A stretch of DNA of 40,632 nt from a virus. Taxonomy: Duplodnaviria > Heunggongvirae > Uroviricota > Caudoviricetes. Both the position numbers and the translations under genes were made by a program. This document shows positions 3,270-40,256 of this stretch, piece by piece; within the stretch, counting starts at the first letter, position 1; every line of letters starts with the position of its first letter. The stretch covers positions 1 to 40,632 of the IMG/VR virus record IMGVR_UViG_2541047846_000008; one strand, written 5' to 3'. A model generated the notes under the pieces. That model was not told where the DNA came from. It made no database searches and was given only the letters and a program-made list of their open reading frames with translations.

Positions 3270-3396
3270 TTTGTTCTCCACGTATATGCGCTGCACCGCG
3301 CTGAATTCTGCTAAAAAGAATCCCTCACCATCCGGTGATTATTGAGTTAATTACGTTTCCATAAATGCCCCCGCAGGGGCATTTGCAGTAATGAAA

Positions 3397-4221
3397 TCAG
3401 GCGGTGAAAGTACCAATAAAGGTTTCTACTTTGCTGTCTTTGAATTTCTCAACAAGCAGATCACGAAATTCGTTAGCCATTTCTTCCTGCACCGCTTCCA
3501 GCTGAATAATGCGCAGAACCAGTACAGGACGATCGCCAGTGATAATGCTGAGGCGTAATTTAAACGGACGTTCTTTCAGACCTTCAAACGGAACGCATTT
3601 AAATTCAAATGCCACTGGCATAATGTCTTTGGTCTTCGCTTCGACAGACTCCATCAGGGAGCGTTTGCCGCTGAAGTCATTGTCTTCAAAATCAGCGGTC
3701 TGGTTCGCTTCAATTGTGATTTTACGGATCGCCGCAGCCGCTTTGGTTGCCTGAATGGCGTCACCATTAGCATCAAAGCCCACAAGGTAGTCGGCCCAGT
3801 CTTCAATCCATTCTGCCAGTGACTTCTGGGAGTTACGCTCGCCATTAACAGACAACAGAGCATAGAACGGTGCTGTCTTTTTCAGTTTGAGAGTGGCGGT
3901 GTTATCTGCGTGACCTGGTTCATCAATAGTACCCAGGTTAAGCACACTGACGGCTCGCATATTATCGGCATCGATAAAGCAGCGGGTGCCTTCATCTGCA
4001 AGATCTTTAGAATAACGGGTAAAGTCATCGATGCTGGCAGTGGAAAGTGCACCACGGAAACGGAAACGATTTAAATTAAATTTTTCCAGATCATGAATGC
4101 GGAAATTCTCAGGCAATGCCACAGCATCGGCACCAATCTTACTGATAATTTCATTAACACCCTGAGCAGAAATAAGGGCATGGATTTGATTAATTGCGGT
4201 TGAGTCTAAGTTCTGAGACAT
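3397..4221 (-). CDS. yfdQ: YfdQ-like (DUF2303-type) phage protein
   Basis: 274-aa ORF; size and position match CPS-53 YfdQ; symbol by analogy. Confidence 0.55.
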
Positions 4222-4286
4222 AATAAGTCCTCACTATATTAAGATATTCAGTGATGAGATAAATAATCAGTTAATTAAGAACGATA

Positions 4287-4649
4287 TTAATGACCTGCTG
4301 CGCGGAGTTTTCCGTCAGGTTCACCGGCAAGAGTCAGTAATTGTCCCTGGTCTTCCTGCAGAATAGTCAGGCGACCACCGCGATTGACATACATCGGCGT
4401 TTCGGTGGTGTCTTCTTCGGAAATTTTCCCGCGGTTAGTCGGGCGAACATATGAGAGTTTGTGTTTGATTTTCACACGGTTCTCATCAAATGGTTCGATT
4501 TCCAGGTTGAGTGAGACCTTACCTTTGGTTTTCGTGTTCATCACACCTGAAGCGACTTCACTGAGAACTGCGCCGATTTTGGTTTCAAATACGCCGCCGT
4601 CCAGCTCCCCGATAAATGCCTGCACATCAGTACTGCGTTCGCTAGCCAT
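4287..4649 (-). CDS. YfdP-like hypothetical protein (120 aa; start at internal Met MASERS)
   Basis: Track ORF runs to 4835 but the N-terminal 62 codons are Cys/His/Arg-rich and look non-coding; internal ATG gives a 120-aa product. Confidence 0.5.
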   Translation of the reverse strand: MASERSTDVQAFIGELDGGVFETKIGAVLSEVASGVMNTKTKGKVSLNLEIEPFDENRVKIKHKLSYVRPTNRGKISEEDTTETPMYVNRGGRLTILQEDQGQLLTLAGEPDGKLRAAGH

Positions 4650-5520
4650 TTTGCTGCTCCTCATCATATCGACCCTGCAAGGTCGGTTGGTTTCTCCACA
4701 AAACAGAGAAGAACACCTGCGGTGGCAGCCGCCCGGATGGATTGGGTTATGAGCCCGTCGTCCGGTGATGTTCTTCTCTGTTTTGTAAAAAGAGCGGTAC
4801 CAGCCGGAAGCAAGTGTACAAACTGGTACCGCCAAAGCAGTGGCTGTTGTGGTGACCGGTGCTGATCTCCGGCTTGCGGTTATTTCAGACTCTCACGGGC
4901 GTTTAATTGCCCCGCCGAACAGCTCTTTTCCGCAATAGCTGCAATGTCTTTCGCGCATCAGCCTGCGCATTCACCACAACGCTGAGAGCACTTAGCCAGT
5001 TACGGCACCACACTTTGTCGCGGTTCCATAAATGCCCTCATCGTTGCACCCTGGTCTCTTCCCAGGCGTCAAACCGAATCGCCACGCTGGTTAGGCGTCT
5101 TATCAGCATCATCATTGACTTGCACATTCCGGCTACCTGGTTTGTTTGCCCGAGCAAGGAGTGGATTGTCCCCTTTAACGTCACCAGACCGCTAACGACG
5201 CATGTGCCATACGCCGTGTTACAACCAACCTTTCGTTAACAACAGTCTGTTGTTTGTTCAGATAATGATGCTACTAAAAGTAGCAAAAATCAACAACAAA
5301 AAGTAGAAGTGTGTATTTAATTTTTAGTTTTCTATATAACGTTATGAATTAAAAGGTTTTTCACAGATGGGGTGATGTGGCGTAGTTACGTATAGAAAAT
5401 ATCGAGTGTCTTTTGTTTTGGTTTAATTATTAGGTTAATTAGATAGTAATAATTTGGGGGAAAATAGTGGGAACTATGGATACAACGGGTCAGGAACAGT
5501 GTTATTAAGCAGGCTACGAG

Positions 5521-5545
5521 TATAAAACCCGACCGGTTGGTCGGG
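5521..5545 (-). terminator. Rho-independent terminator downstream of the ParA-like gene
   Basis: CCCGACC-GGTT-GGTCGGG hairpin followed on the minus strand by TTTTATA. Confidence 0.6.
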
Positions 5546-5581
5546 CGAGAATTATGTTCGTTCTAAATCATGGTTATTGTA

Positions 5582-6667
5582 TTACAGACACTTGACTACT
5601 GTTGAAACATCAGATTCTAGTGCTTCAATTTGTGCTCTATTAGCTTGGGTCGCCATACCATAGATAGTGTAACTCTTATGCTGCAGCCTACTTAAAGGGC
5701 ATCCCTCATGGTTTATTATTGCTGCAAGAGTATTACCATCTTTGACATTTTGAACTCTCTCGAAAGTAGCCACATTTGTGAACAGATGAGGATGTGTATT
5801 TAACAGGTCATCCGTGATTCTTTTGATCTCTTCTGCATGTGATTTGAATGCTTTTGCTGCATCACTTTCATTAGTTCTTGAGCGGTTTTGTACGAAAAGG
5901 TGTAGTTCAGGTAGTTCGATAAGGTTTTGCTTTGCTTCTTTGTTGAAATCTAAGAACATTTCATCTTGTTCTGACTTGTCAATAGACACTCCATAAATAA
6001 GTTTAACAAGGTTTTTTATTCCGCGAATTGATGCAGCATCGGCAGTGCAAGGGATAATTATTCTATTTGCCGCGACTACTCCCAATTCTGTGTAGCTGGC
6101 AAAACTTGGGTTACAATCAATAAAAAATGTTTTTGCTCTGTCAGAAATGTTTTTATCGGCTTCAAAAGATGCTATTAGATCTACCAGCAAAGATCGGCTT
6201 TTCTTCCATGCTTCTTTTACTGGGGATGAGCCAATGTGAGATATTAAGCGTGAACAGATATCAAGATCGACATCACCAGGAAGAATATATAAGTTCTCTG
6301 GCATTTTTGCATTAACATCATGGGCTCGTACAAAGTAAGAAGATTCATTTCCTAAACGAGACAAAGGAGATTTGCTAAAACGCTCCTTGATATAACCTGC
6401 GATTGTAACATTTCTGTCTCGCAATTTATTTAGATTTTCTTCCCCGGTACCATTGCCACCAAGAATAATTTCTGAAACGTTTGATTGAGGGCATGAGTCA
6501 ATAACCACAACATCTTGATCCGGATGAGATATAGCAAACTCAACGGCAAGATTATATGTAAGAAAAGTTTTTCCTACACCACCTTTGTTGTTCCATACTA
6601 AATATTTTGTATTGGTGGAAATCATATCTGCTACCCCATCTGTCGCTTCAGTACGTTCATTAATCAT
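5582..6667 (-). CDS. ParA/MinD-family P-loop ATPase with ~110-aa C-terminal extension; AT-rich moron next to repressor
   Basis: Deviant Walker A NNKGGVGKT near N-terminus, FIDCNPS and IIIPCTAD motifs; 361 aa; AT-rich; own terminator. Confidence 0.75.
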   Translation of the reverse strand: MINERTEATDGVADMISTNTKYLVWNNKGGVGKTFLTYNLAVEFAISHPDQDVVVIDSCPQSNVSEIILGGNGTGEENLNKLRDRNVTIAGYIKERFSKSPLSRLGNESSYFVRAHDVNAKMPENLYILPGDVDLDICSRLISHIGSSPVKEAWKKSRSLLVDLIASFEADKNISDRAKTFFIDCNPSFASYTELGVVAANRIIIPCTADAASIRGIKNLVKLIYGVSIDKSEQDEMFLDFNKEAKQNLIELPELHLFVQNRSRTNESDAAKAFKSHAEEIKRITDDLLNTHPHLFTNVATFERVQNVKDGNTLAAIINHEGCPLSRLQHKSYTIYGMATQANRAQIEALESDVSTVVKCL

Positions 6668-6901
6668 TATCGTATCCTGTTGTATAGAATTGTCTATTAT
6701 TTATGTTTTATTTTGGTTTTTTTTGTGTTAGTAACGCACCCAAAGATAACATATGGTCTTTATCTTTTCTTACTTAGGGTAACAGCTCAGTGTTAATCCA
6801 TTTTTATGGACCAATGTGCCAAATAAAATTTGTATAAAGATTTTCTATCCTTATCTTTTATCATCTGTGCTCGTTTGCTTTAACGATTGCTAGATGCCTA
6901 A

Positions 6902-7642
6902 TTAAAGTCGATTATATTTAATCGACTCATGAATCAGTGCCTTACCCATAACATAAAGCTGATCTTGCGACTTCTCATCAATGTACCATTTCTCATAGGC
7001 GGGGTTATCCGAAAGAACAGCTAGTTTGTTGCCTTGCATTTGTAGACGTTTAACATGGAAAGTCTTACCGTAAACGAAAGAGTAAACTCCATCAGTCTGG
7101 AAGTGGCGAACGGAAATGTCGACAAACAATCGATCCCCGGAAACAAGAGTTGGGGACATACTATCTCCATTTACCGTCATAACTTTTATATCATTCTGAG
7201 AACGGTTTCCGAAAAGAGAACGGGCATGTTCAGTTGTGAACTCAATGGCGTAGAGCACATCAACATAGTCTGAAAGCATATAGGTCCCAGGTCCTGCGCT
7301 AACGCTAAGATCCAAAACTTCTATCCTGTATACATCGGGCTTTGTTGGATTGGGGATGCTTGCCATTTCCTTACATTCCTCTCTATCTCCAACACCATAT
7401 TCTAGATATGAAGCTGATACTCCAAGAGCCAACGCAAGTTTACTCATGACAGAGACACGTGGCTTCGCTGCGCCGATTGTGTATCGACGAGCCATTTCAT
7501 ATGTAACGCCCACAAGACTTTTGAGTTGAGTGACAGAGATTCCTTTGATTGTCATCAATTCGTTTAGTCTCTTGGCGAAATCTGGATACTTCTGTTCTTC
7601 TACCATAGGTAGAAGATTACTCACATCACACGCGCTAGTCAT
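6902..7642 (-). CDS. CI-like prophage repressor (N-terminal HTH, C-terminal S24 LexA-like autopeptidase)
   Basis: HTH segment followed by VNGDSMSPTL (S24 catalytic Ser) and downstream Lys; divergent from cro; internal ATG start consistent with a leaderless transcript. Confidence 0.85.
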   Translation of the reverse strand: MTSACDVSNLLPMVEEQKYPDFAKRLNELMTIKGISVTQLKSLVGVTYEMARRYTIGAAKPRVSVMSKLALALGVSASYLEYGVGDREECKEMASIPNPTKPDVYRIEVLDLSVSAGPGTYMLSDYVDVLYAIEFTTEHARSLFGNRSQNDIKVMTVNGDSMSPTLVSGDRLFVDISVRHFQTDGVYSFVYGKTFHVKRLQMQGNKLAVLSDNPAYEKWYIDEKSQDQLYVMGKALIHESIKYNRL

Positions 7643-7644
7643 TT

Positions 7645-7680
7645 CTATTTTAAGTAGTTGCAATTTGCTATTTTAAGTAG
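7645..7680. promoter_or_regulatory. Operator region of the cI/cro switch: two copies of CTATTTTAAGTAG
   Basis: 13-bp partly palindromic direct repeats at about 7645..7657 and 7668..7680 between divergent cI and cro. Confidence 0.5.
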
Positions 7681-7712
7681 CATCATCCCTCTGAATTTCA
7701 GAGGAGAAAGGT

Positions 7713-7976
7713 ATGTCATCTCAAAACTACACAGAGAAAGCAGTAAAGGCTGCGGGAAAGTCTTTATCTGAAGTAGCCCGTCGCTTTGGTTTTAAGTCCA
7801 CTCAATCCGTCGCCAATTGGGTAATTAACAATCAAGTCCCGTCAGAACGGGTTTTACAACTTTGTGAGTTGGGAAACTGGTCCGTGACCCCTCATGAACT
7901 GCGTCCTGATATTTACCCCAATCCAAATGATGGATTACCTGAGTGCTATTCAAAAGTTAGCGGTTCAACTGCGTAA
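7713..7976 (+). CDS. Cro-like HTH regulator (YdaS-family-like)
   Basis: 87-aa ORF with GAGGAG RBS, divergent from cI; HTH-like core. Confidence 0.6.
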   Translation: MSSQNYTEKAVKAAGKSLSEVARRFGFKSTQSVANWVINNQVPSERVLQLCELGNWSVTPHELRPDIYPNPNDGLPECYSKVSGSTA

Positions 7977-8004
7977 ACGTAACCACAGAAACGAGGAATG
8001 AACC

Positions 8005-34907: not shown

Positions 34908-35654
34908 ATGCATCGTATAGACACGAAAACCGCGCAGAAGGATAAGTTCGGCGCGGGTAAGAACGGTTTTACCCGTGGTAACCCCCAGACCGGCACACCT
35001 GCCACCGATCTGGATGATGACTACTTTGACATGTTGCAGGAAGAACTTTGTAGCGTGGTGGAGGCCTCCGGTGCCAGCCTGGAGAAGGCGCGGCACGACC
35101 AGTTGCTTACCGCGCTTCGTGCGCTGCTGTTAAGCCGCAAGAATCCGTTTGGCGATATCAAATCGGATGGCACGGTGGAAACGGCTCTCGAAAACCTTGG
35201 TTTGGGAGAAGGTGCTCCAGCTATTGGCGTTCCGTTCTTCTGGCCGTCCGCTGCAATGCCAAATACTGTAATCGACAGCTGGTCCAGTATGGTGTTTTTG
35301 AAGTTCAACGGCGCGAAATTCTCTGCCACTGATTATCCTGTGCTGGCGAAAGTGTTTCCTTCGCTGGTATTACCTGAAGCCCGCGGTGATTTCATTCGTA
35401 TCTGGGATGACGGGCGAGGTGCAGACGGTGGTCGCGAATTATTAAGCTGGCAGGAAGCTACAAACTTTTCTCAGTTTGCCGGGAATATAGTCGGAGGTGC
35501 GGGACACGCAATTAACTTTCATGATGGCATCGCCGGAAATCAGCCAGGATTTTCACGATTTAATTTCACCAGTAACTCTGTGGGTGATGGTGTGAATTTT
35601 GTTGCTGTCAGACCGCGAAATATTGCATTTAACTTTCTGGTGAGGGCTAAATAA
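34908..35654 (+). CDS. Tail fibre protein (constant N-terminus to about 35216, variable C-terminus inside invertible segment)
   Basis: 248 aa; crossover site inside the gene; an alternative C-terminal exon lies on the opposite strand. Confidence 0.8.
35187..35216. repeat. Left recombination (crossover) site of the invertible segment, inside the tail fibre gene
   Basis: ctcgaaaaccttggtttgggagaaggtgct; matches the inverted partner at 36925..36954 in 20 of 21 positions; resembles hix/gix-type sites. Confidence 0.5.
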
Positions 35655-36247
35655 TGAAACCTGTTTTTGATGAAAATGGGCTGGCCACAGTGCCGGGCGA
35701 TATGCGTTGTTTTTATTATGATGCTGAAACATCTGAGTATACGGGCTGGTCTGATGAATATATTAATACTGGCGTAAGTATGCCCGCCTGTTCCACTGGT
35801 ATTGACCCGGGCGAAAACATTCCGGGGAAAGTGGCAGTATTTACGGGTAAGGGATGGAGCCATGAAGAAGACTATCGCAATGAGACTGTTTACTCAACAG
35901 AAAATGGCGCAGCTGTTACAGTGGATTATATCGGTGCCATCAAAAACGGTTATGTCACGCTTTCACCGTTAACGCCATATGATAAATGGGATGGTGAGAA
36001 ATGGGTGACAGATACTGAGGCACAACACGGTGCCGCAGTAGAAGCAGCAGAAGCACAGCGCCAGTCACTGATTGATGCAGTAATGGCTTCCATTAGTCTG
36101 ATTCAGCTGAAATTACAGGCCGGACGGAAACTGACTCAGGCAGAAACAACCCGACTTAACACCGTGCTGGATTACATTGACGCGGTGACGGCAACAGATA
36201 CCAGCACCGCGCCGGATGTCATCTGGCCTGAACTGCCGGAGGCGTAG
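35654..36247 (+). CDS. Tail fibre assembly protein (Tfa), active orientation
   Basis: 197 aa; conserved C-terminal motif TSTAPD(V/I)xWPExP shared with the inverted copy. Confidence 0.8.
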
Positions 36248-36647
36248 GCCATTCAATATCGGGTGCTGTTGAAGTATCAACACGCATCAGCAGCACACGG
36301 TATTTCTTCCATTCGGTGAGAGTTGAAGTTTCTTCATCAGTTGCGATATCAGCATCAACAGCATCCTGACGCCAGGATATTTCACTGTCAGCTTTTTCCC
36401 GTAATTGGGATTTTTTAACTTCAGCAATAGCTATTAATTCCTTTTTGGTCGGCTGAGGAATATCTATCAGTGCTGGTTTTCCATTCAGTGTTCCAATCTG
36501 TTTTCCTGGTGGAATATCCATAAATAACTTTTTATGTTCTTCCTCACTGACTATTACACCATCATCAGGCCACAGACCTGATGCCTCAAATTTTTCTTTC
36601 TCCGATATGGGGAAAAAGCCATTTGATTTAGCGCTCCATACGTACAT
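36219..36647 (-). CDS. Tail fibre assembly protein (Tfa), alternative copy in inverted orientation
   Basis: 142 aa; C-terminal motif [15 protein letters not shown]; convergent with the other Tfa. Confidence 0.75.
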
Positions 36648-36648
36648 A

Positions 36649-36915
36649 TCAATACCCCACCGCTATAATGTCCACATTAAATCCCCCGGGACCTGCCTGC
36701 CAGATGCTGGCCCCTGTTAATGATTTTGTTTGATGAACAACCGCCACATTTGCTGGTGATTGTGTTTCAGTTGTTACAGTACCGATATCATTCCAGTTAA
36801 TTGAGATGGAATAGTTCGTTGTTGTAAACGACCGGGGGAAAGTTATGTGTCTTGCATTGGTGCCAATAGGAAATCCAAGATAAACACGCTGAATTATCAT
36901 TCCTCCAGGTAACAT
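36649..36915 (-). CDS. Alternative tail fibre C-terminal segment (promoterless; frame stays open upstream to the crossover site)
   Basis: Upstream in-frame sequence reads ..[12 protein letters not shown].., matching ..ENLGLGEGA.. of the expressed fibre. Confidence 0.6.
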
Positions 36916-36924
36916 AACCCAGTT

Positions 36925-36954
36925 AGCACCTTCTCCAAAACCAACCTTTCAAAT
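36925..36954. repeat. Right recombination (crossover) site of the invertible segment
   Basis: agcaccttctccaaaaccaacctttcaaat, inverted relative to the site at 35187..35216. Confidence 0.5.
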
Positions 36955-37015
36955 ATTTTTCTGAATCAGGTGATATTTCGCCTCTTCTCCTGTTTTTACA
37001 ACAGGAGAAGCACTC

Positions 37016-37579
37016 ATGATTTACGGGTATGTTCGTGTATCAACAAATCATCAGGATACAGAGTTGCAACGTCTTGCACTTGAGTCAGCTGGCTGTGAGC
37101 GAATTTATGAAGAATATGCCAGTGGCAGAACAGCTAATCGCCCTGTGTTAAAGGAATTAATTACGGTGATGAAAAGTGGAGATGAGTTGATTGTCTGGAA
37201 GTTAGATCGGATAGGGAGAAATGTGCTGCATGCGCTATTGATGTTTCAAAATCTGCACGAAAAAGGTGTTAATTTTCGGAGTATTACAGATGGCGTAGAC
37301 CTGAAAACAGCAAGTGGTCGCTATAATTTCCGTAATATTCTTTCTGCTGCGCAGTATGAATCTGATTTGAATAGCGAGCGAACTTTAGCTGGTTTGGCTA
37401 TTGCCAGATCCAAAGGCCGGATTGGTGGGCGTAGACCGAAGTTTAGCGACGAGCAGTGGCAACAGATGGGAGCGCTCATAGCGGCAGGGAAATCACGGCG
37501 TTATGTTGCACGTATCTATAACGTTGGGCTATCAACCCTATATAAACGATTTCCTGTTACTGGCATTCAAACGAAATAA
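37016..37579 (+). CDS. pin: Serine DNA invertase (Pin/Gin/Hin family)
   Basis: N-terminal YVRVSTxxQ catalytic Ser motif and C-terminal HTH; 187 aa; adjacent to inverted crossover sites. Confidence 0.9.
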   Translation: MIYGYVRVSTNHQDTELQRLALESAGCERIYEEYASGRTANRPVLKELITVMKSGDELIVWKLDRIGRNVLHALLMFQNLHEKGVNFRSITDGVDLKTASGRYNFRNILSAAQYESDLNSERTLAGLAIARSKGRIGGRRPKFSDEQWQQMGALIAAGKSRRYVARIYNVGLSTLYKRFPVTGIQTK

Positions 37580-37722: not shown

Positions 37723-37971
37723 TTAGTGAACAAACCACTCGTCAGCAGATTCCCAGGTATCTTTCAGAGTCTCCTGAACAAAAGTTTTTGCAGAATCCTT
37801 ATCTGCGGTGCGTGTAACAGAAAGGCCATCGTTGCTGGTGGCTTTTACGATCACCTCTACATCGTCATAACGTTTACTGATGCGTCGGGTTAATTCTTCC
37901 TTTAACGCATCCACAGCACCGGTTGGCATTTTAGTCATTTTTTCTTTGGCTATGCAGATTTCAATACGCAT
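37723..37971 (-). CDS. dinI: DinI-like protein (predicted RecA/SOS modulator)
   Basis: 82 aa; MRIEI.IAK and C-terminal TWESADEWF motifs as in DinI; two LexA boxes upstream. Confidence 0.8.
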
Positions 37972-38032: not shown

Positions 38033-39130
38033 TCAAGAGGCCTTATTTCTGCTCCTTTGGAGCTCTTCAAAACGATTATGTAAAGATTTCGGATACAGTT
38101 CGGTATATACCTGCCATAGCACGTTTAATGAACGATGCCCTGTAACCTGGGCGACTTCCTCAATACTAAAACCAGCCTCAAATAAGCGACTTGCCCCTTC
38201 TCTACGCAAATCATGGTATCGCAGATCTTTAATACCTAATTTGCTTCTTACCCTCTGGAATCCCGCAGTAACAGAAGTGCTGTTATATGGAAAAATGAAT
38301 TCTGATTTTTTGGGTTGTCGTTGGACGATATCCCAGGCTTCCCCAAGCAAGGCTACTTTCATATGGTTGCCTTCCTTTTTACGTGGATCTTTCCTGTCTC
38401 TTACGAGTATGGATTTTTGTTCCTGATCGAGATCCTCCCATCGTAATCGGCATACTTCACCGATTCGCATACATGACCACACAGAAAATTTGAGGATATC
38501 AACGAACGGAATTTTTGAGCATTTATGTGTAGATCGTTGTTGAAGACCTTCAATGAGCATGTCCAGTTCATCAGATGCCGGTCTACGATTACGACGATTT
38601 GATTTACCAATTAAACCAAGTTTAAGTAGATATGGACGAGCGGCTTTTGCTGGGTTTGATGTGTAATTAATTCCATATACAGGTTTGGCAGCATCCAGAA
38701 CACTGCCAAGATAACTAACATCGTGGCTAACTGTAGCTGGACCTGCACCAGCGTTGTTTCTTAGCCTGCAATGTTCAATTACGTCATTTTCTGTCAGTTC
38801 AGATAGTTTGAGCGCGGAGACGTCACTATCCATAAGCAGTTCCAGCACATATCTTTTAGTACGGCCTGCTTTACCTCCGGCATTTGGGTCATTTAAATAT
38901 TTGTGTAGTAAGTCACGGACTGTAAGTCCGTCAACTGCATTTGATGATGGAATGCCATATAGATCTAATTCCATCACTTTCTGTGTGCCCCATGTTTTGG
39001 CATGAGCATGTTTAGGGAATGTTTTACTTTCCCTGTAAGTGATAACACCTTTTTCTTTGATAATCACATTACAGCGATAGCGTGGTGTGCCATCGGATTT
39101 TAGTCGTTTCTCTATGTTATAGTATGCCAT
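38033..39130 (-). CDS. int: Tyrosine integrase (DusA-targeting type)
   Basis: 365 aa; C-terminal catalytic region with RxxR ... HDLRR ... Y pattern; adjacent to dusA. Confidence 0.9.
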   Translation of the reverse strand: MAYYNIEKRLKSDGTPRYRCNVIIKEKGVITYRESKTFPKHAHAKTWGTQKVMELDLYGIPSSNAVDGLTVRDLLHKYLNDPNAGGKAGRTKRYVLELLMDSDVSALKLSELTENDVIEHCRLRNNAGAGPATVSHDVSYLGSVLDAAKPVYGINYTSNPAKAARPYLLKLGLIGKSNRRNRRPASDELDMLIEGLQQRSTHKCSKIPFVDILKFSVWSCMRIGEVCRLRWEDLDQEQKSILVRDRKDPRKKEGNHMKVALLGEAWDIVQRQPKKSEFIFPYNSTSVTAGFQRVRSKLGIKDLRYHDLRREGASRLFEAGFSIEEVAQVTGHRSLNVLWQVYTELYPKSLHNRFEELQRSRNKAS

Positions 39131-39218
39131 TACACGACCTCGTTATTTCGGGTTCCCATAAAACGTGGGAACCTGTGCGGGAACCTAACGCGAGAAAAAT
39201 AGCCTGAAATGTTCAAAA

Positions 39219-40256
39219 ATGCACGATAATCATGAAGCACAAAAAATTAATCAAACCAGCGTGATGCCTGAAAAAACTGGTGTTTACTGGAATTCTCGGT
39301 TTAGCATTGCTCCTATGCTTGACTGGACGGACAGACATTGCCGTTATTTCCTGCGTCTGCTTTCCCGCAATACGTTGCTGTATACCGAAATGGTGACCAC
39401 AGGGGCGATTATTCACGGTAAAGGTGATTACCTGGCGTACAGTGAAGAAGAACATCCGGTAGCGTTGCAACTCGGGGGTAGCGATCCGGCGGCGCTGGCA
39501 CAGTGTGCGAAGCTGGCAGAAGCGCGCGGATATGATGAGATCAACCTGAATGTCGGCTGCCCGTCTGACCGGGTGCAGAACGGCATGTTTGGTGCGTGTC
39601 TGATGGGTAATGCGCAGCTGGTTGCCGACTGCGTGAAAGCGATGCGCGATGTGGTGTCGATTCCGGTGACGGTGAAAACGCGTATTGGCATCGATGATCA
39701 GGACAGCTATGAATTTCTCTGCGATTTCATCAACACCGTTTCCGGCAAAGGTGAGTGTGAGATGTTCATCATCCACGCACGTAAAGCCTGGCTTTCTGGG
39801 TTAAGTCCGAAAGAAAACCGTGAGATCCCGCCGCTCGATTATCCGCGTGTGTATCAACTGAAGCGTGACTTTCCGCATCTGACGATGTCGATTAACGGTG
39901 GTATCAAGTCGCTGGAAGAAGCTAAAGCGCATTTGCAACATATGGATGGCGTGATGGTCGGGCGCGAGGCGTATCAGAATCCGGGGATTCTGGCGGCGGT
40001 AGACCGAGAGATTTTTGGTTCCTCGGATACCGATGCCGATCCGGTGGCGGTAGTGCGCGCCATGTATCCGTACATTGAGCGTGAACTCAGCCAGGGTACG
40101 TATCTCGGCCATATTACCCGGCATATGCTGGGCTTGTTCCAGGGTATTCCTGGCGCGCGGCAGTGGCGGCGTTATTTAAGTGAAAATGCCCATAAAGCGG
40201 GTGCAGACATTAATGTGCTGGAACACGCGCTCAAACTGGTGGCGGATAAGCGTTAA
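39219..40256 (+). CDS. dusA: tRNA-dihydrouridine synthase A
   Basis: 345 aa; conserved Dus motifs; followed by pspG as in E. coli. Confidence 0.9.

Follow-up and report, generated by a model that had tools for sequence, protein, structure and literature searches.

Does the tail-fibre operon of this prophage carry a working DNA switch that exchanges the tip of the fibre, and what would such a switch mean for the phage? The stretch analysed here, referred to as the window, is 40,632 nucleotides long (IMG/VR record IMGVR_UViG_2541047846_000008). It is an SfV/e14-like myovirus prophage at the E. coli dusA site, carrying an intact DNA-inversion switch of the e14/Mu/P1 type. We are confident that this is a site-specific inversion switch of the Din family (Hin/Gin/Cin/Pin-type) in the tail-fibre operon, which swaps the receptor-binding tip. 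Over the remainder of the prophage, identity to SKA5, an isolated phage with the same invertase and an equal layout, is ~98%; the prophage is essentially complete. The features of the locus are collected in Table 1.

Table 1 Features of the tail-fibre switch, with positions counted from the first letter of the window.
Feature	Position	Strand	Details
Tail-fibre gene as now assembled, Sc + tip A	34908-35654	+	248 aa; open reading frame
Constant fibre N-terminus (Sc)	34908-35196	+	outside the invertible segment; common to both simulated isoforms
Left crossover site	35185-35210	-	26 bp, inside the fibre reading frame; core dinucleotide 35197-35198
Invertible segment	35197-36944		1,748 bp core to core; from BLAST against PEC122
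Fibre tip A (expressed), tail-collar type	35199-35654	+	PHROG matches
Chaperone A, tail-fibre assembly protein	35654-36247	+	197 aa, expressed orientation; Pfam Caudo_TAP 4e-27, phrog_105 5e-83
Chaperone B	36219-36647	-	142 aa, silent orientation; Pfam Caudo_TAP 7e-34
Fibre tip B (silent)	36649-36948	-	no start codon, no upstream promoter of its own
Right crossover site	36931-36956	+	26 bp; core dinucleotide 36943-36944
Two leader hairpins	36968-37010	+	precede the invertase gene; AGGAG ribosome-binding site buried in the second (36984-37010)
Serine DNA invertase, PinL-like clade of the Din family	37016-37579	+	187 aa; Pfam Resolvase 3e-36 and HTH_7 7e-12

The segment consists of two back-to-back cassettes, an expressed fibre tip with its chaperone and a silent chaperone with its fibre tip, and all five genes are intact. 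The first-pass annotation had described just this gene content, with a fibre C-terminus and a chaperone for each orientation. The assembled fibre matched phrog_1858 (3e-62), its N-terminus phrog_1396/2617 and its C-terminus the tail-collar phrog_523/6459, all of which are PHROG tail-fibre families; the expressed fibre had no Pfam match although PHROGs did match, and no NCBIfam family was found for the fibres. Its product shares 240 of 248 amino acids with the expressed fibre of E. coli NADC1036. At the nucleotide level, Sc is 97% identical to the 5′ ends of SfV orf21 and e14-type stfP, and tip A is 92.6% identical to the side-tail-fibre C-termini of the lambdoid phages mEp213 and mEp043. Between tip A and tip B there is no sequence relationship (BLASTP E = 8.2). 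Each tip is paired with a Caudo_TAP chaperone of its own, and the 3′ end of chaperone B overlaps chaperone A by 29 bp. As had been claimed, the alternative frame stays open to the site: it runs through the inner half-site and the core, and ends at a TGA (36949-36951) within the outer half-site. Disabling mutations were not found in the alternative segment, since both tip B and chaperone B share 98-99% identity with counterparts that occupy the expressed position in other genomes, and so are not decayed; chaperone B, for example, is identical to the expressed chaperone of E. coli PEC122 at 140 of 142 residues. Automated annotation is weak at loci of this kind: the silent tip is routinely labelled an incomplete pseudogene, and in one genome the expressed fibre is labelled an "integrase".

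The crossover sites, read as 26-bp Din-type sites, are TTCTCCCAAACC AA GGTTTTCGAGAG on the left (reverse strand) and TTCTCCAAAACC AA CCTTTCAAATAT on the right. They are inverted relative to each other, with an identical central AA/TT dinucleotide and inner half-sites that match at 11 of 12 bases. The arms of the inverted repeat (35192-35216 and 36925-36949) match at 22 of 25 positions, and the uninterrupted inner repeat (35197-35216 against 36925-36944) at 19 of 20; the match of 20 in 21 first reported was therefore right in substance and off by about one base. Compared with Table 3 of PMC4134206, the sites fit the family consensus. With a 19-nt degenerate consensus, the perfect matches in the 40.6-kb window were exactly these two sites, on opposite strands. 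When up to three mismatches were allowed, three matches were obtained against 0.23 expected, a count reached by none of 100 shuffles. The sole extra match (37769-37787, three mismatches, beside a dinI-like gene) was treated as chance, and a multi-site, Min-like shufflon was rejected. The left site is identical to the left site of e14 and contains the e14 repeat TTGGTTTGGGAGAAGG, as reported in PMC12529663, and the inner half of the right site differs from it by one base. The core dinucleotide has the same codon phase at both sites (CTT / GTT), so that a simulated inversion is in frame.

Inverting the segment in silico at the cores joined the 98 constant codons of the N-terminus, in frame, to the second C-terminus, giving a fibre of 194 amino acids with a Pfam Gp53-like_C match (25.4 bits against a cut-off of 24.9, profile positions 2-84 of 84), and placed the start of chaperone B 1 nt past the new fibre stop codon. 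This simulated fibre is identical at 191 of 194 residues to the one expressed in E. coli PEC122, which carries the same dusA prophage (97.6-98% identical) with an invertase identical at 187 of 187 residues and the segment flipped. By BLAST, 35197-36944 aligned in reverse to PEC122 L001 8045-6298 at 97.6% with both flanks forward, and the simulated inverted sequence aligned to PEC122 in a single alignment over 2,701 of 2,701 nt (98.1%). The tip swap by inversion that the first-pass annotation had proposed is supported by this naturally occurring flipped isomer, whose prophage is nearly identical and whose invertase is the same; the segment is not confined to a single orientation. Both orientations of the 1.75-kb segment are present in many sequenced E. 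coli genomes, the variation followed here being between genomes (the window against PEC122, NADC1036 against B1S11). Among 5,426 complete E. coli genomes, none gave a high-identity match to the right junction as it stands in the window, where tip B adjoins an invertase of this type; only the flipped isomer was found.

These isomers also reveal where the exchange takes place. Position 7 of the inner half-sites is polymorphic (C/A), and between the window and PEC122 the two bases change sides along with the segment, with the outer half-sites staying put; the same marker swap is seen independently in NADC1036 against B1S11. Because the marker moves with the segment and the outer half-sites are fixed, the exchange is confined to 7 bp including the core, and falls in the site core, as predicted for site-specific inversion. 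General homologous recombination by RecA between the short inverted repeats would likewise produce an orientation polymorphism, since the repeats agree at 19 of 20 bp and recombination between inverted homologous stretches is possible in principle, but we give this explanation almost no weight: the shared stretch of only 20 bp, with one mismatch, is shorter than RecA usually requires to act efficiently, in each of two independent pairs of isomers the exchange maps to the 7 bp around the core, and the repeats fit the Din crossover consensus with an invertase gene adjacent.

The neighbouring gene, located 60 bp outside the right site, does encode a serine invertase, with Resolvase and HTH_7 domains in a 187-aa frame, as the first reading of the locus had it. 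The protein matched phrog_125 (DNA invertase, 1e-72), gave only sub-threshold matches in NCBIfam, and aligned without gaps to residues 1-181 of Gin in the structures 3UJ3/4M6F (E = 1e-56). The catalytic residues Y5, R7, S9, D64, R65 and R68 are invariant with Gin/Cin/Pin, and the enzyme also keeps two elements of Pin, the minor-groove arm GRIGGRRPK and the recognition helix STLYKRFP. A serine recombinase with an HTH domain, inverted 26-bp sites, a fibre-switch architecture and both orientations between genomes place the system in the Din family. The invertase is 100% identical to that of SKA5, 80% identical to phi80 PinL, 54% (101/187) to e14 PinE and 50-53% to Gin/Cin. "Pin-driven", as the switch had been called, is hence correct for a Pin-like enzyme of the Din family but not for Pin itself; judged by these identities, the enzyme does not appear to be an ortholog of e14 Pin (PinE), and "Pin-like, Din family" is the accurate name. 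We assigned it to a PinL-like clade, which was defined in this analysis by at least 77% identity, a helix-E motif and a conserved leader hairpin, and is not a named family. The clade comprises 120 clusters at 77-100% identity, with the helix-E motif Y-N-F-R-x-I-x-x-A-x-x-Y fixed in 120 of 121 aligned sequences; it is large and, to judge from this conservation, evidently under purifying selection.

In the proposed working of the switch, the invertase would bind as dimers at both 26-bp sites, one in the fibre frame and the other 60 bp upstream of its own gene, and would cut at the central AA/TT with a 2-bp stagger. One pair of half-sites would then rotate by 180 degrees before religation, so that the 1,748 bp from core to core are flipped. 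As the segment now lies, the products of the late tail operon would be the 248-aa Sc-tip A fibre and chaperone A; after the flip, they would be the 194-aa Sc-tip B fibre, which ends in a Gp53-like domain, and chaperone B. A population of lysogens would consequently release two particle types with different receptor-binding tips, a form of host-range bet-hedging. We infer that the flip is performed by the window's own invertase, as we do its rate, and the two tips presumably recognise different receptors.

Inversion might instead mainly serve the lysogen, through a fibre-derived protein that blocks the adsorption of other phages, rather than the host range of the prophage itself. For e14 and PinQ, Kirigo et al. 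2025 (PMC12529663) showed that flipping the homologous P segment, whose repeats are the same, gives rise to StfE2 and prevents T2 from adsorbing. In the window, however, a reverse-strand in-frame TGA lies directly outside the right site, where a start codon is also missing, so that an e14-like chimeric StfE2 cannot be made from outside the segment; a chimeric reading frame entering from there is ruled out by the stop codon. In addition, in an essentially complete prophage ~98% identical to a viable phage, the fibre would have its normal role in the virion. We therefore regard a mainly defensive function as very improbable, while noting that host-defence and host-range uses are not mutually exclusive.

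The preferred reading, a fibre-tip switch acting on host range, is a mechanism known since work in the 1980s on Mu G, P1 C and e14 P, and is thus nothing new in principle as biology; the locus is a further case of this textbook arrangement. The e14 P segment, flipped by PinE in a cryptic prophage of E. coli K-12, has the same gene order (ymfQ, stf (Sc+Sv), tfa, tfa′, stf′, pin), the same constant fibre part at 96% nucleotide identity and, besides the shared left site, a similar segment size (1,797 bp (PMC12529663) against 1,748 bp). However, the outer half of its right site and its leader differ, its tips and chaperones in K-12 are other cassettes, and e14 is defective and integrated at icd, whereas the window is a complete prophage integrated at dusA. 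With an e14-like left site and constant fibre part and an invertase only 54% identical to Pin, the window represents a new member but no new mechanism. In phi80, the outer half of the right site, the 60-bp spacer downstream of it and the hairpin IR3, all upstream of pinL, are 100% identical to those of the window, but the phi80 arrangement is a remnant with one site, tail-collar pseudogene fragments and a PinL without the end of its HTH domain, whereas the window has the complete switch. The Mu G/Gin and P1 C/Cin systems share the constant N-terminus with alternative C-termini, the mirror-image paired chaperones (U/U′), the invertase gene just outside one site and the 26-bp sites with a 2-bp core, but have segments of 3-4.2 kb and much longer fibres. 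Other E. coli prophages carry fibre segments of 2-3 kb that can invert at 26-bp sites, e.g. Phi2 ...ACCTT GGTTTAGGAGAA, and both orientations were seen by reads in one culture (PMC4134206); those prophages (P2-like and others) and their cassettes are different from the window's, and coexistence there was read-based whereas our comparison is between genomes. Direct precedent includes experiments on the same repeats in e14 and long-read evidence of fibre switching in E. coli prophages (PMC12529663, PMC4272514, PMC4134206).

An intact architecture might also be a frozen relic that does not switch by itself, its invertase unexpressed or inactive and its orientations produced by rare events or by invertases acting in trans. 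Trans-inversion by unrelated Pin proteins is documented, and PinQ acts on e14 in this way (PMC12529663); moreover, the very same cassette pair lies beside a canonical pinE in NADC1036, and in B1S11 the flipped segment adjoins a truncated recombinase. Since other invertases can flip such segments, the natural isomers are no proof of the activity of this enzyme. A stable 11-bp hairpin covers the invertase ribosome-binding site (leader fold -29.3 kcal/mol, z = -4.8), the enzyme is without several of the residues that contact Fis or the enhancer, and a plus-strand scan from the right site to the ATG, uninformative in that overall counts fell below shuffle expectation, found no convincing sigma-70-like promoter. 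Low expression is, however, normal for the Gin/Cin enzyme class. The frame is full length with all catalytic residues present, the protein is 100% conserved among the window, PEC122 and SKA5, and the clade of 120 clusters bears the marks of purifying selection, all of which make a relic improbable.

How this enzyme is controlled may be less conventional. The leader hairpin is annotated as IR3 in phi80 and is conserved in seven genera, with one compensatory pair; phi80 and five other genera share it with the window. As an invertase operator, the palindrome would have arms that begin with TTCTCC like the half-sites, but its hexamers are 13 bp apart rather than 14, and it stays unchanged even in species with a different hexamer at their crossover sites; we therefore prefer the RNA hairpin, a single compensatory pair proving neither reading. 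Residues uniquely conserved in Fis/enhancer-dependent invertases correspond to Hin K47, R/K48, R/K51, Q151, R154 and L155 (PMC3798978), at which the window's enzyme has K, E, T, Q, A and L, keeping three of the six and departing in this from Gin and Cin, whose enhancer and Fis-contact residues are canonical. Positions 50, 150, 153 and 154 vary across the 120 clusters, in which the residues for Fis contact and the basic residues of helix B are either lost or variable, and the helix-E "lock" residues are replaced clade-wide (Hin F105 by Asn, H107 by Arg, M109 by Ile and M115 by Tyr). The Hin F105N substitution gives hyperactive, Fis-independent inversion. A Fis-bound recombinational enhancer would be expected in the 5′ part of the invertase gene (+19 to +90 in P1). 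The 15-mers at +22 and +71 have the signature G...C in gin and pinE but G...T and C...C in the window, a comparison confounded by the degeneracy of Fis sites and by coding constraint, and a shifted G...C 15-mer lies at +20. Scanning for the G-N13-C signature with 48/49-bp spacing gave an indecisive criterion, since P1 cin itself is without the C at site I.

Taken together, the prophage can probably release two types of virion that differ in the receptor-binding tip, which is relevant to host-range prediction, phage typing, phage therapy, and correct assembly and annotation. Only the regulation of the PinL-like clade is potentially new; its control may differ, given that several residues through which Hin depends on Fis and the enhancer are missing and that a hairpin buries the ribosome-binding site. 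It is a speculative and rather unlikely possibility that its members are natural invertases which need neither Fis nor an enhancer, or are activated in another way, and which are restrained at translation. If confirmed, they would be natural enhancer-independent invertases, and their relaxed topological selectivity might help to explain the exchange of fibre cassettes between prophages exactly at crossover sites.

The five genes within 34908-37579 (see the table) have the same architecture as Mu G/Gin, P1 C/Cin and especially e14 P/Pin, in which inversion and host-range switching are established. The first-pass annotation thus correctly identified an invertible tail-fibre switch of a known type; all that is new is that this member is uncharacterised and its invertase has diverged.

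Features of the invertible region and its downstream flank (window coordinates)
Feature	Position	Strand	Basis or remark
Tail-fibre gene, 248 aa	34908-35654	+	ORF; PHROGs tail-fibre and tail-collar families
Left 26-bp site	35210-35185	-	TTCTCCCAAACC-AA-GGTTTTCGAGAG
Invertible segment	35197-36944		1,748 bp
Fibre-assembly chaperone, 197 aa	35654-36247	+	Pfam Caudo_TAP
Second chaperone, 142 aa	36219-36647	-	Convergent; Pfam Caudo_TAP
Fibre C-terminus without start codon	36649-36948	-	ORF scan of region
Right 26-bp site	36931-36956		TTCTCCAAAACC-AA-CCTTTCAAATAT
Two adjacent leader hairpins	36968-37010		Invertase leader
Serine recombinase, 187 aa	37016-37579	+	Pfam Resolvase and HTH_7; PHROGs 'DNA invertase' phrog_125, 1e-72
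DinI-like gene	37723-37971	-	Downstream of invertase
dusA-type tyrosine integrase	38033-39130	-	Downstream of invertase
dusA, intact	39219-40256		Prophage integrated at dusA 5' end

Mu-type baseplate genes (Pfam Baseplate_J and Mu Gp48/YmfQ) lie upstream of the fibre region, which, with the DinI-like gene, integrase and intact dusA downstream, indicates that the window is the right part of a dusA-integrated prophage. The gene layout at 38033-40256 is that described for the dusA integrase family (PMC4482086), and pspG comes after dusA, as in E. coli PEC122. Over most of its length, the window was ~98% identical to the isolated Escherichia phage SKA5. The exception is ~4.6 kb around 3380-7980, which has short matching stretches only; since the SKA5 flanks matching its edges (13870 and 11844) enclose the SKA5 cI repressor gene, the immunity module of the window probably differs from that of SKA5. 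The fibre cassettes of the two also differ.

The best inverted repeat of the region was 35192-35216/36925-36949 (22/25 matching; 19/20 in the inner 20 bp). The two sites have the 12+2+12 layout of hix, gix, cix and pix, with the same central dinucleotide and inverted orientation, and were the only perfect matches to the degenerate 19-nt consensus in the whole window. Allowing up to 3 mismatches gave 3 matches in the window against 0.23 expected; the third, at 37769-37787 in the dinI-like gene region (GTCTCCTGAACAAAAGTTT, 3 mismatches), recurs in PEC122 and SKA5 and probably reflects chance. The left site is identical to that of e14, and both sites contain the e14 P segment repeats reported by Kirigo et al., TTGGTTTGGGAGAAGG / CCTTCTCC(C/A)AAACCAA (PMC12529663).

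We then inverted the segment in silico. At both sites, the core dinucleotide occupies the same place within its codon (CTT in Sc, the constant fibre N-terminus outside the segment, and GTT in the silent copy), which keeps the fusion in frame. This yields a 194-aa fibre, consisting of Sc (residues 1-98) and the alternative C-terminus and ending in ...VGY, the last 87 residues of which match the entire Pfam Gp53-like_C profile above the curated cut-off; the second chaperone then starts 1 nt past the fibre stop codon. As now oriented, the silent copy has no start codon and its frame ends at a TGA within the right site's outer half; it is a genuine cassette lacking both promoter and start. The expressed and silent tips (A and B) are unrelated in sequence (E = 8.2), and the similarity between their chaperones is confined to the C-terminal ~67 residues (33% identity). 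Both chaperones share a C-terminal DTSTAPD(V/I)xWP motif, and the 3' ends of their genes overlap by 29 bp (36219-36247).

The inverted form was found in another genome. The simulated sequence matched PEC122 over 2,701/2,701 nt in one piece (98.1%), at the same dusA prophage with an invertase identical at 187/187 residues. Local BLAST of the window against PEC122 revealed collinear flanks and a reversed segment, all at ~97.6-97.8%. The inner half-sites (inside the segment) carry a C/A marker at their position 7, with C on the left and A on the right in the window but the reverse in PEC122, while the distinct outer half-sites are unmoved, indicating that the exchange was confined to 7 bp including the core. 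The marker swap was repeated in an independent pair, E. coli NADC1036 and B1S11. Both carry the same 1.75-kb segment (97-98% identical; loci L051, 2509-5166, and L052, 2509-4734): in NADC1036, it adjoins canonical pinE, and the 248-aa fibre is annotated 'integrase'; in B1S11, it is flipped and adjoins a truncated recombinase. With the copies expressed in these comparison genomes, tip B and chaperone B share 98-99% identity, and thus the silent cassette shows no decay. Cultures of E. coli holding both orientations side by side have been documented (PMC4272514; PMC4134206; PMC12529663). Our comparison between genomes suggests that this switch flips in nature, although the natural isomers could have been produced by trans-acting invertases.

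The window invertase shares 80% amino acid identity with phi80 PinL, 54% with e14 PinE, 53% with P1 Cin and 50% with D108 Gin. The occurrence of the same segment beside pinE indicates that one segment is served by two invertase lineages, 54% identical. The enzyme aligns without gaps to the Gin crystal-structure sequences and retains the GRIGGRRPK arm, the STLYKRFP recognition helix and all catalytic residues, as fits an enzyme that acts on the sites used by PinE. Its clade is large: a homology search returned 120 clusters (77-100% identity) from Escherichia, Salmonella, Citrobacter, Klebsiella, Enterobacter, Serratia, Kluyvera and others, with an additional 14 loci in other Enterobacterales species.

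The same cassette pair occurs in either orientation in many complete E. coli genomes. Right-site junction queries matched ~200 genomes, and among the matches listed, homology starts where the inverted repeat has its outer edge (query positions 124-131), indicating that this invertase has been joined to many different cassettes precisely at the site. The right-site outer half was shared by 29 IMG/VR contigs; in the 17 where the left site was located, segments were 1,457-3,226 bp long, with tip A in either position. Such mosaicism at crossover sites follows the pattern that Sandmeier (1994) reviewed (cited in PMC4134206).

Hin residues K47, R/K48, R/K51, Q151, R154 and L155 are reported to show conservation specific to Fis/enhancer-dependent invertases and to be required for activation (McLean et al. 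2013). The window enzyme has K46, E47, T50, Q150, A153 and L154 (Gin numbering) at these positions; those in contact with Fis and the enhancer are variable or non-basic in the clade (E47, T50 and A153 in the window enzyme). F105 and M109 lock the inactive Hin dimer, and F105N causes fast, Fis-independent inversion (Chang et al. 2015). Helix E of the window enzyme reads Y103-N104-F105-R106-x-I108-x-x-A111-x-x-Y114, versus F-F-F-H-x-M-x-x-L-x-x-M, and the YNFR-I--A--Y motif is invariant in 120 of the 121 aligned clade sequences. Asn104 equals the hyperactive F105N substitution. In addition, the G...C signature of the gin/pinE 15-mers at +22 and +71 is not retained at those positions in the window invertase gene.

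The second leader hairpin, an 11-bp stem (CTTCTCCTGTT/AACAGGAGAAG) directly upstream of the ATG, is predicted to bury the AGGAG ribosome-binding site, which lies 8 nt ahead of the start codon (z = -4.8). An identical hairpin is annotated IR3 in phi80, and all 29 IMG/VR loci carry it unchanged, even those in which the gene is ~20-30% diverged. Five other genera (Kluyvera, Trabulsiella, Pseudocitrobacter, Shimwellia and Apirhabdus) have retained it, with one compensatory pair; relatives at 65-72% identity lack it. Taken together, the residues, the Fis-site motif and the leader hairpin suggest that regulation in this clade may differ from that of the classical invertases, and its regulatory make-up might be new.
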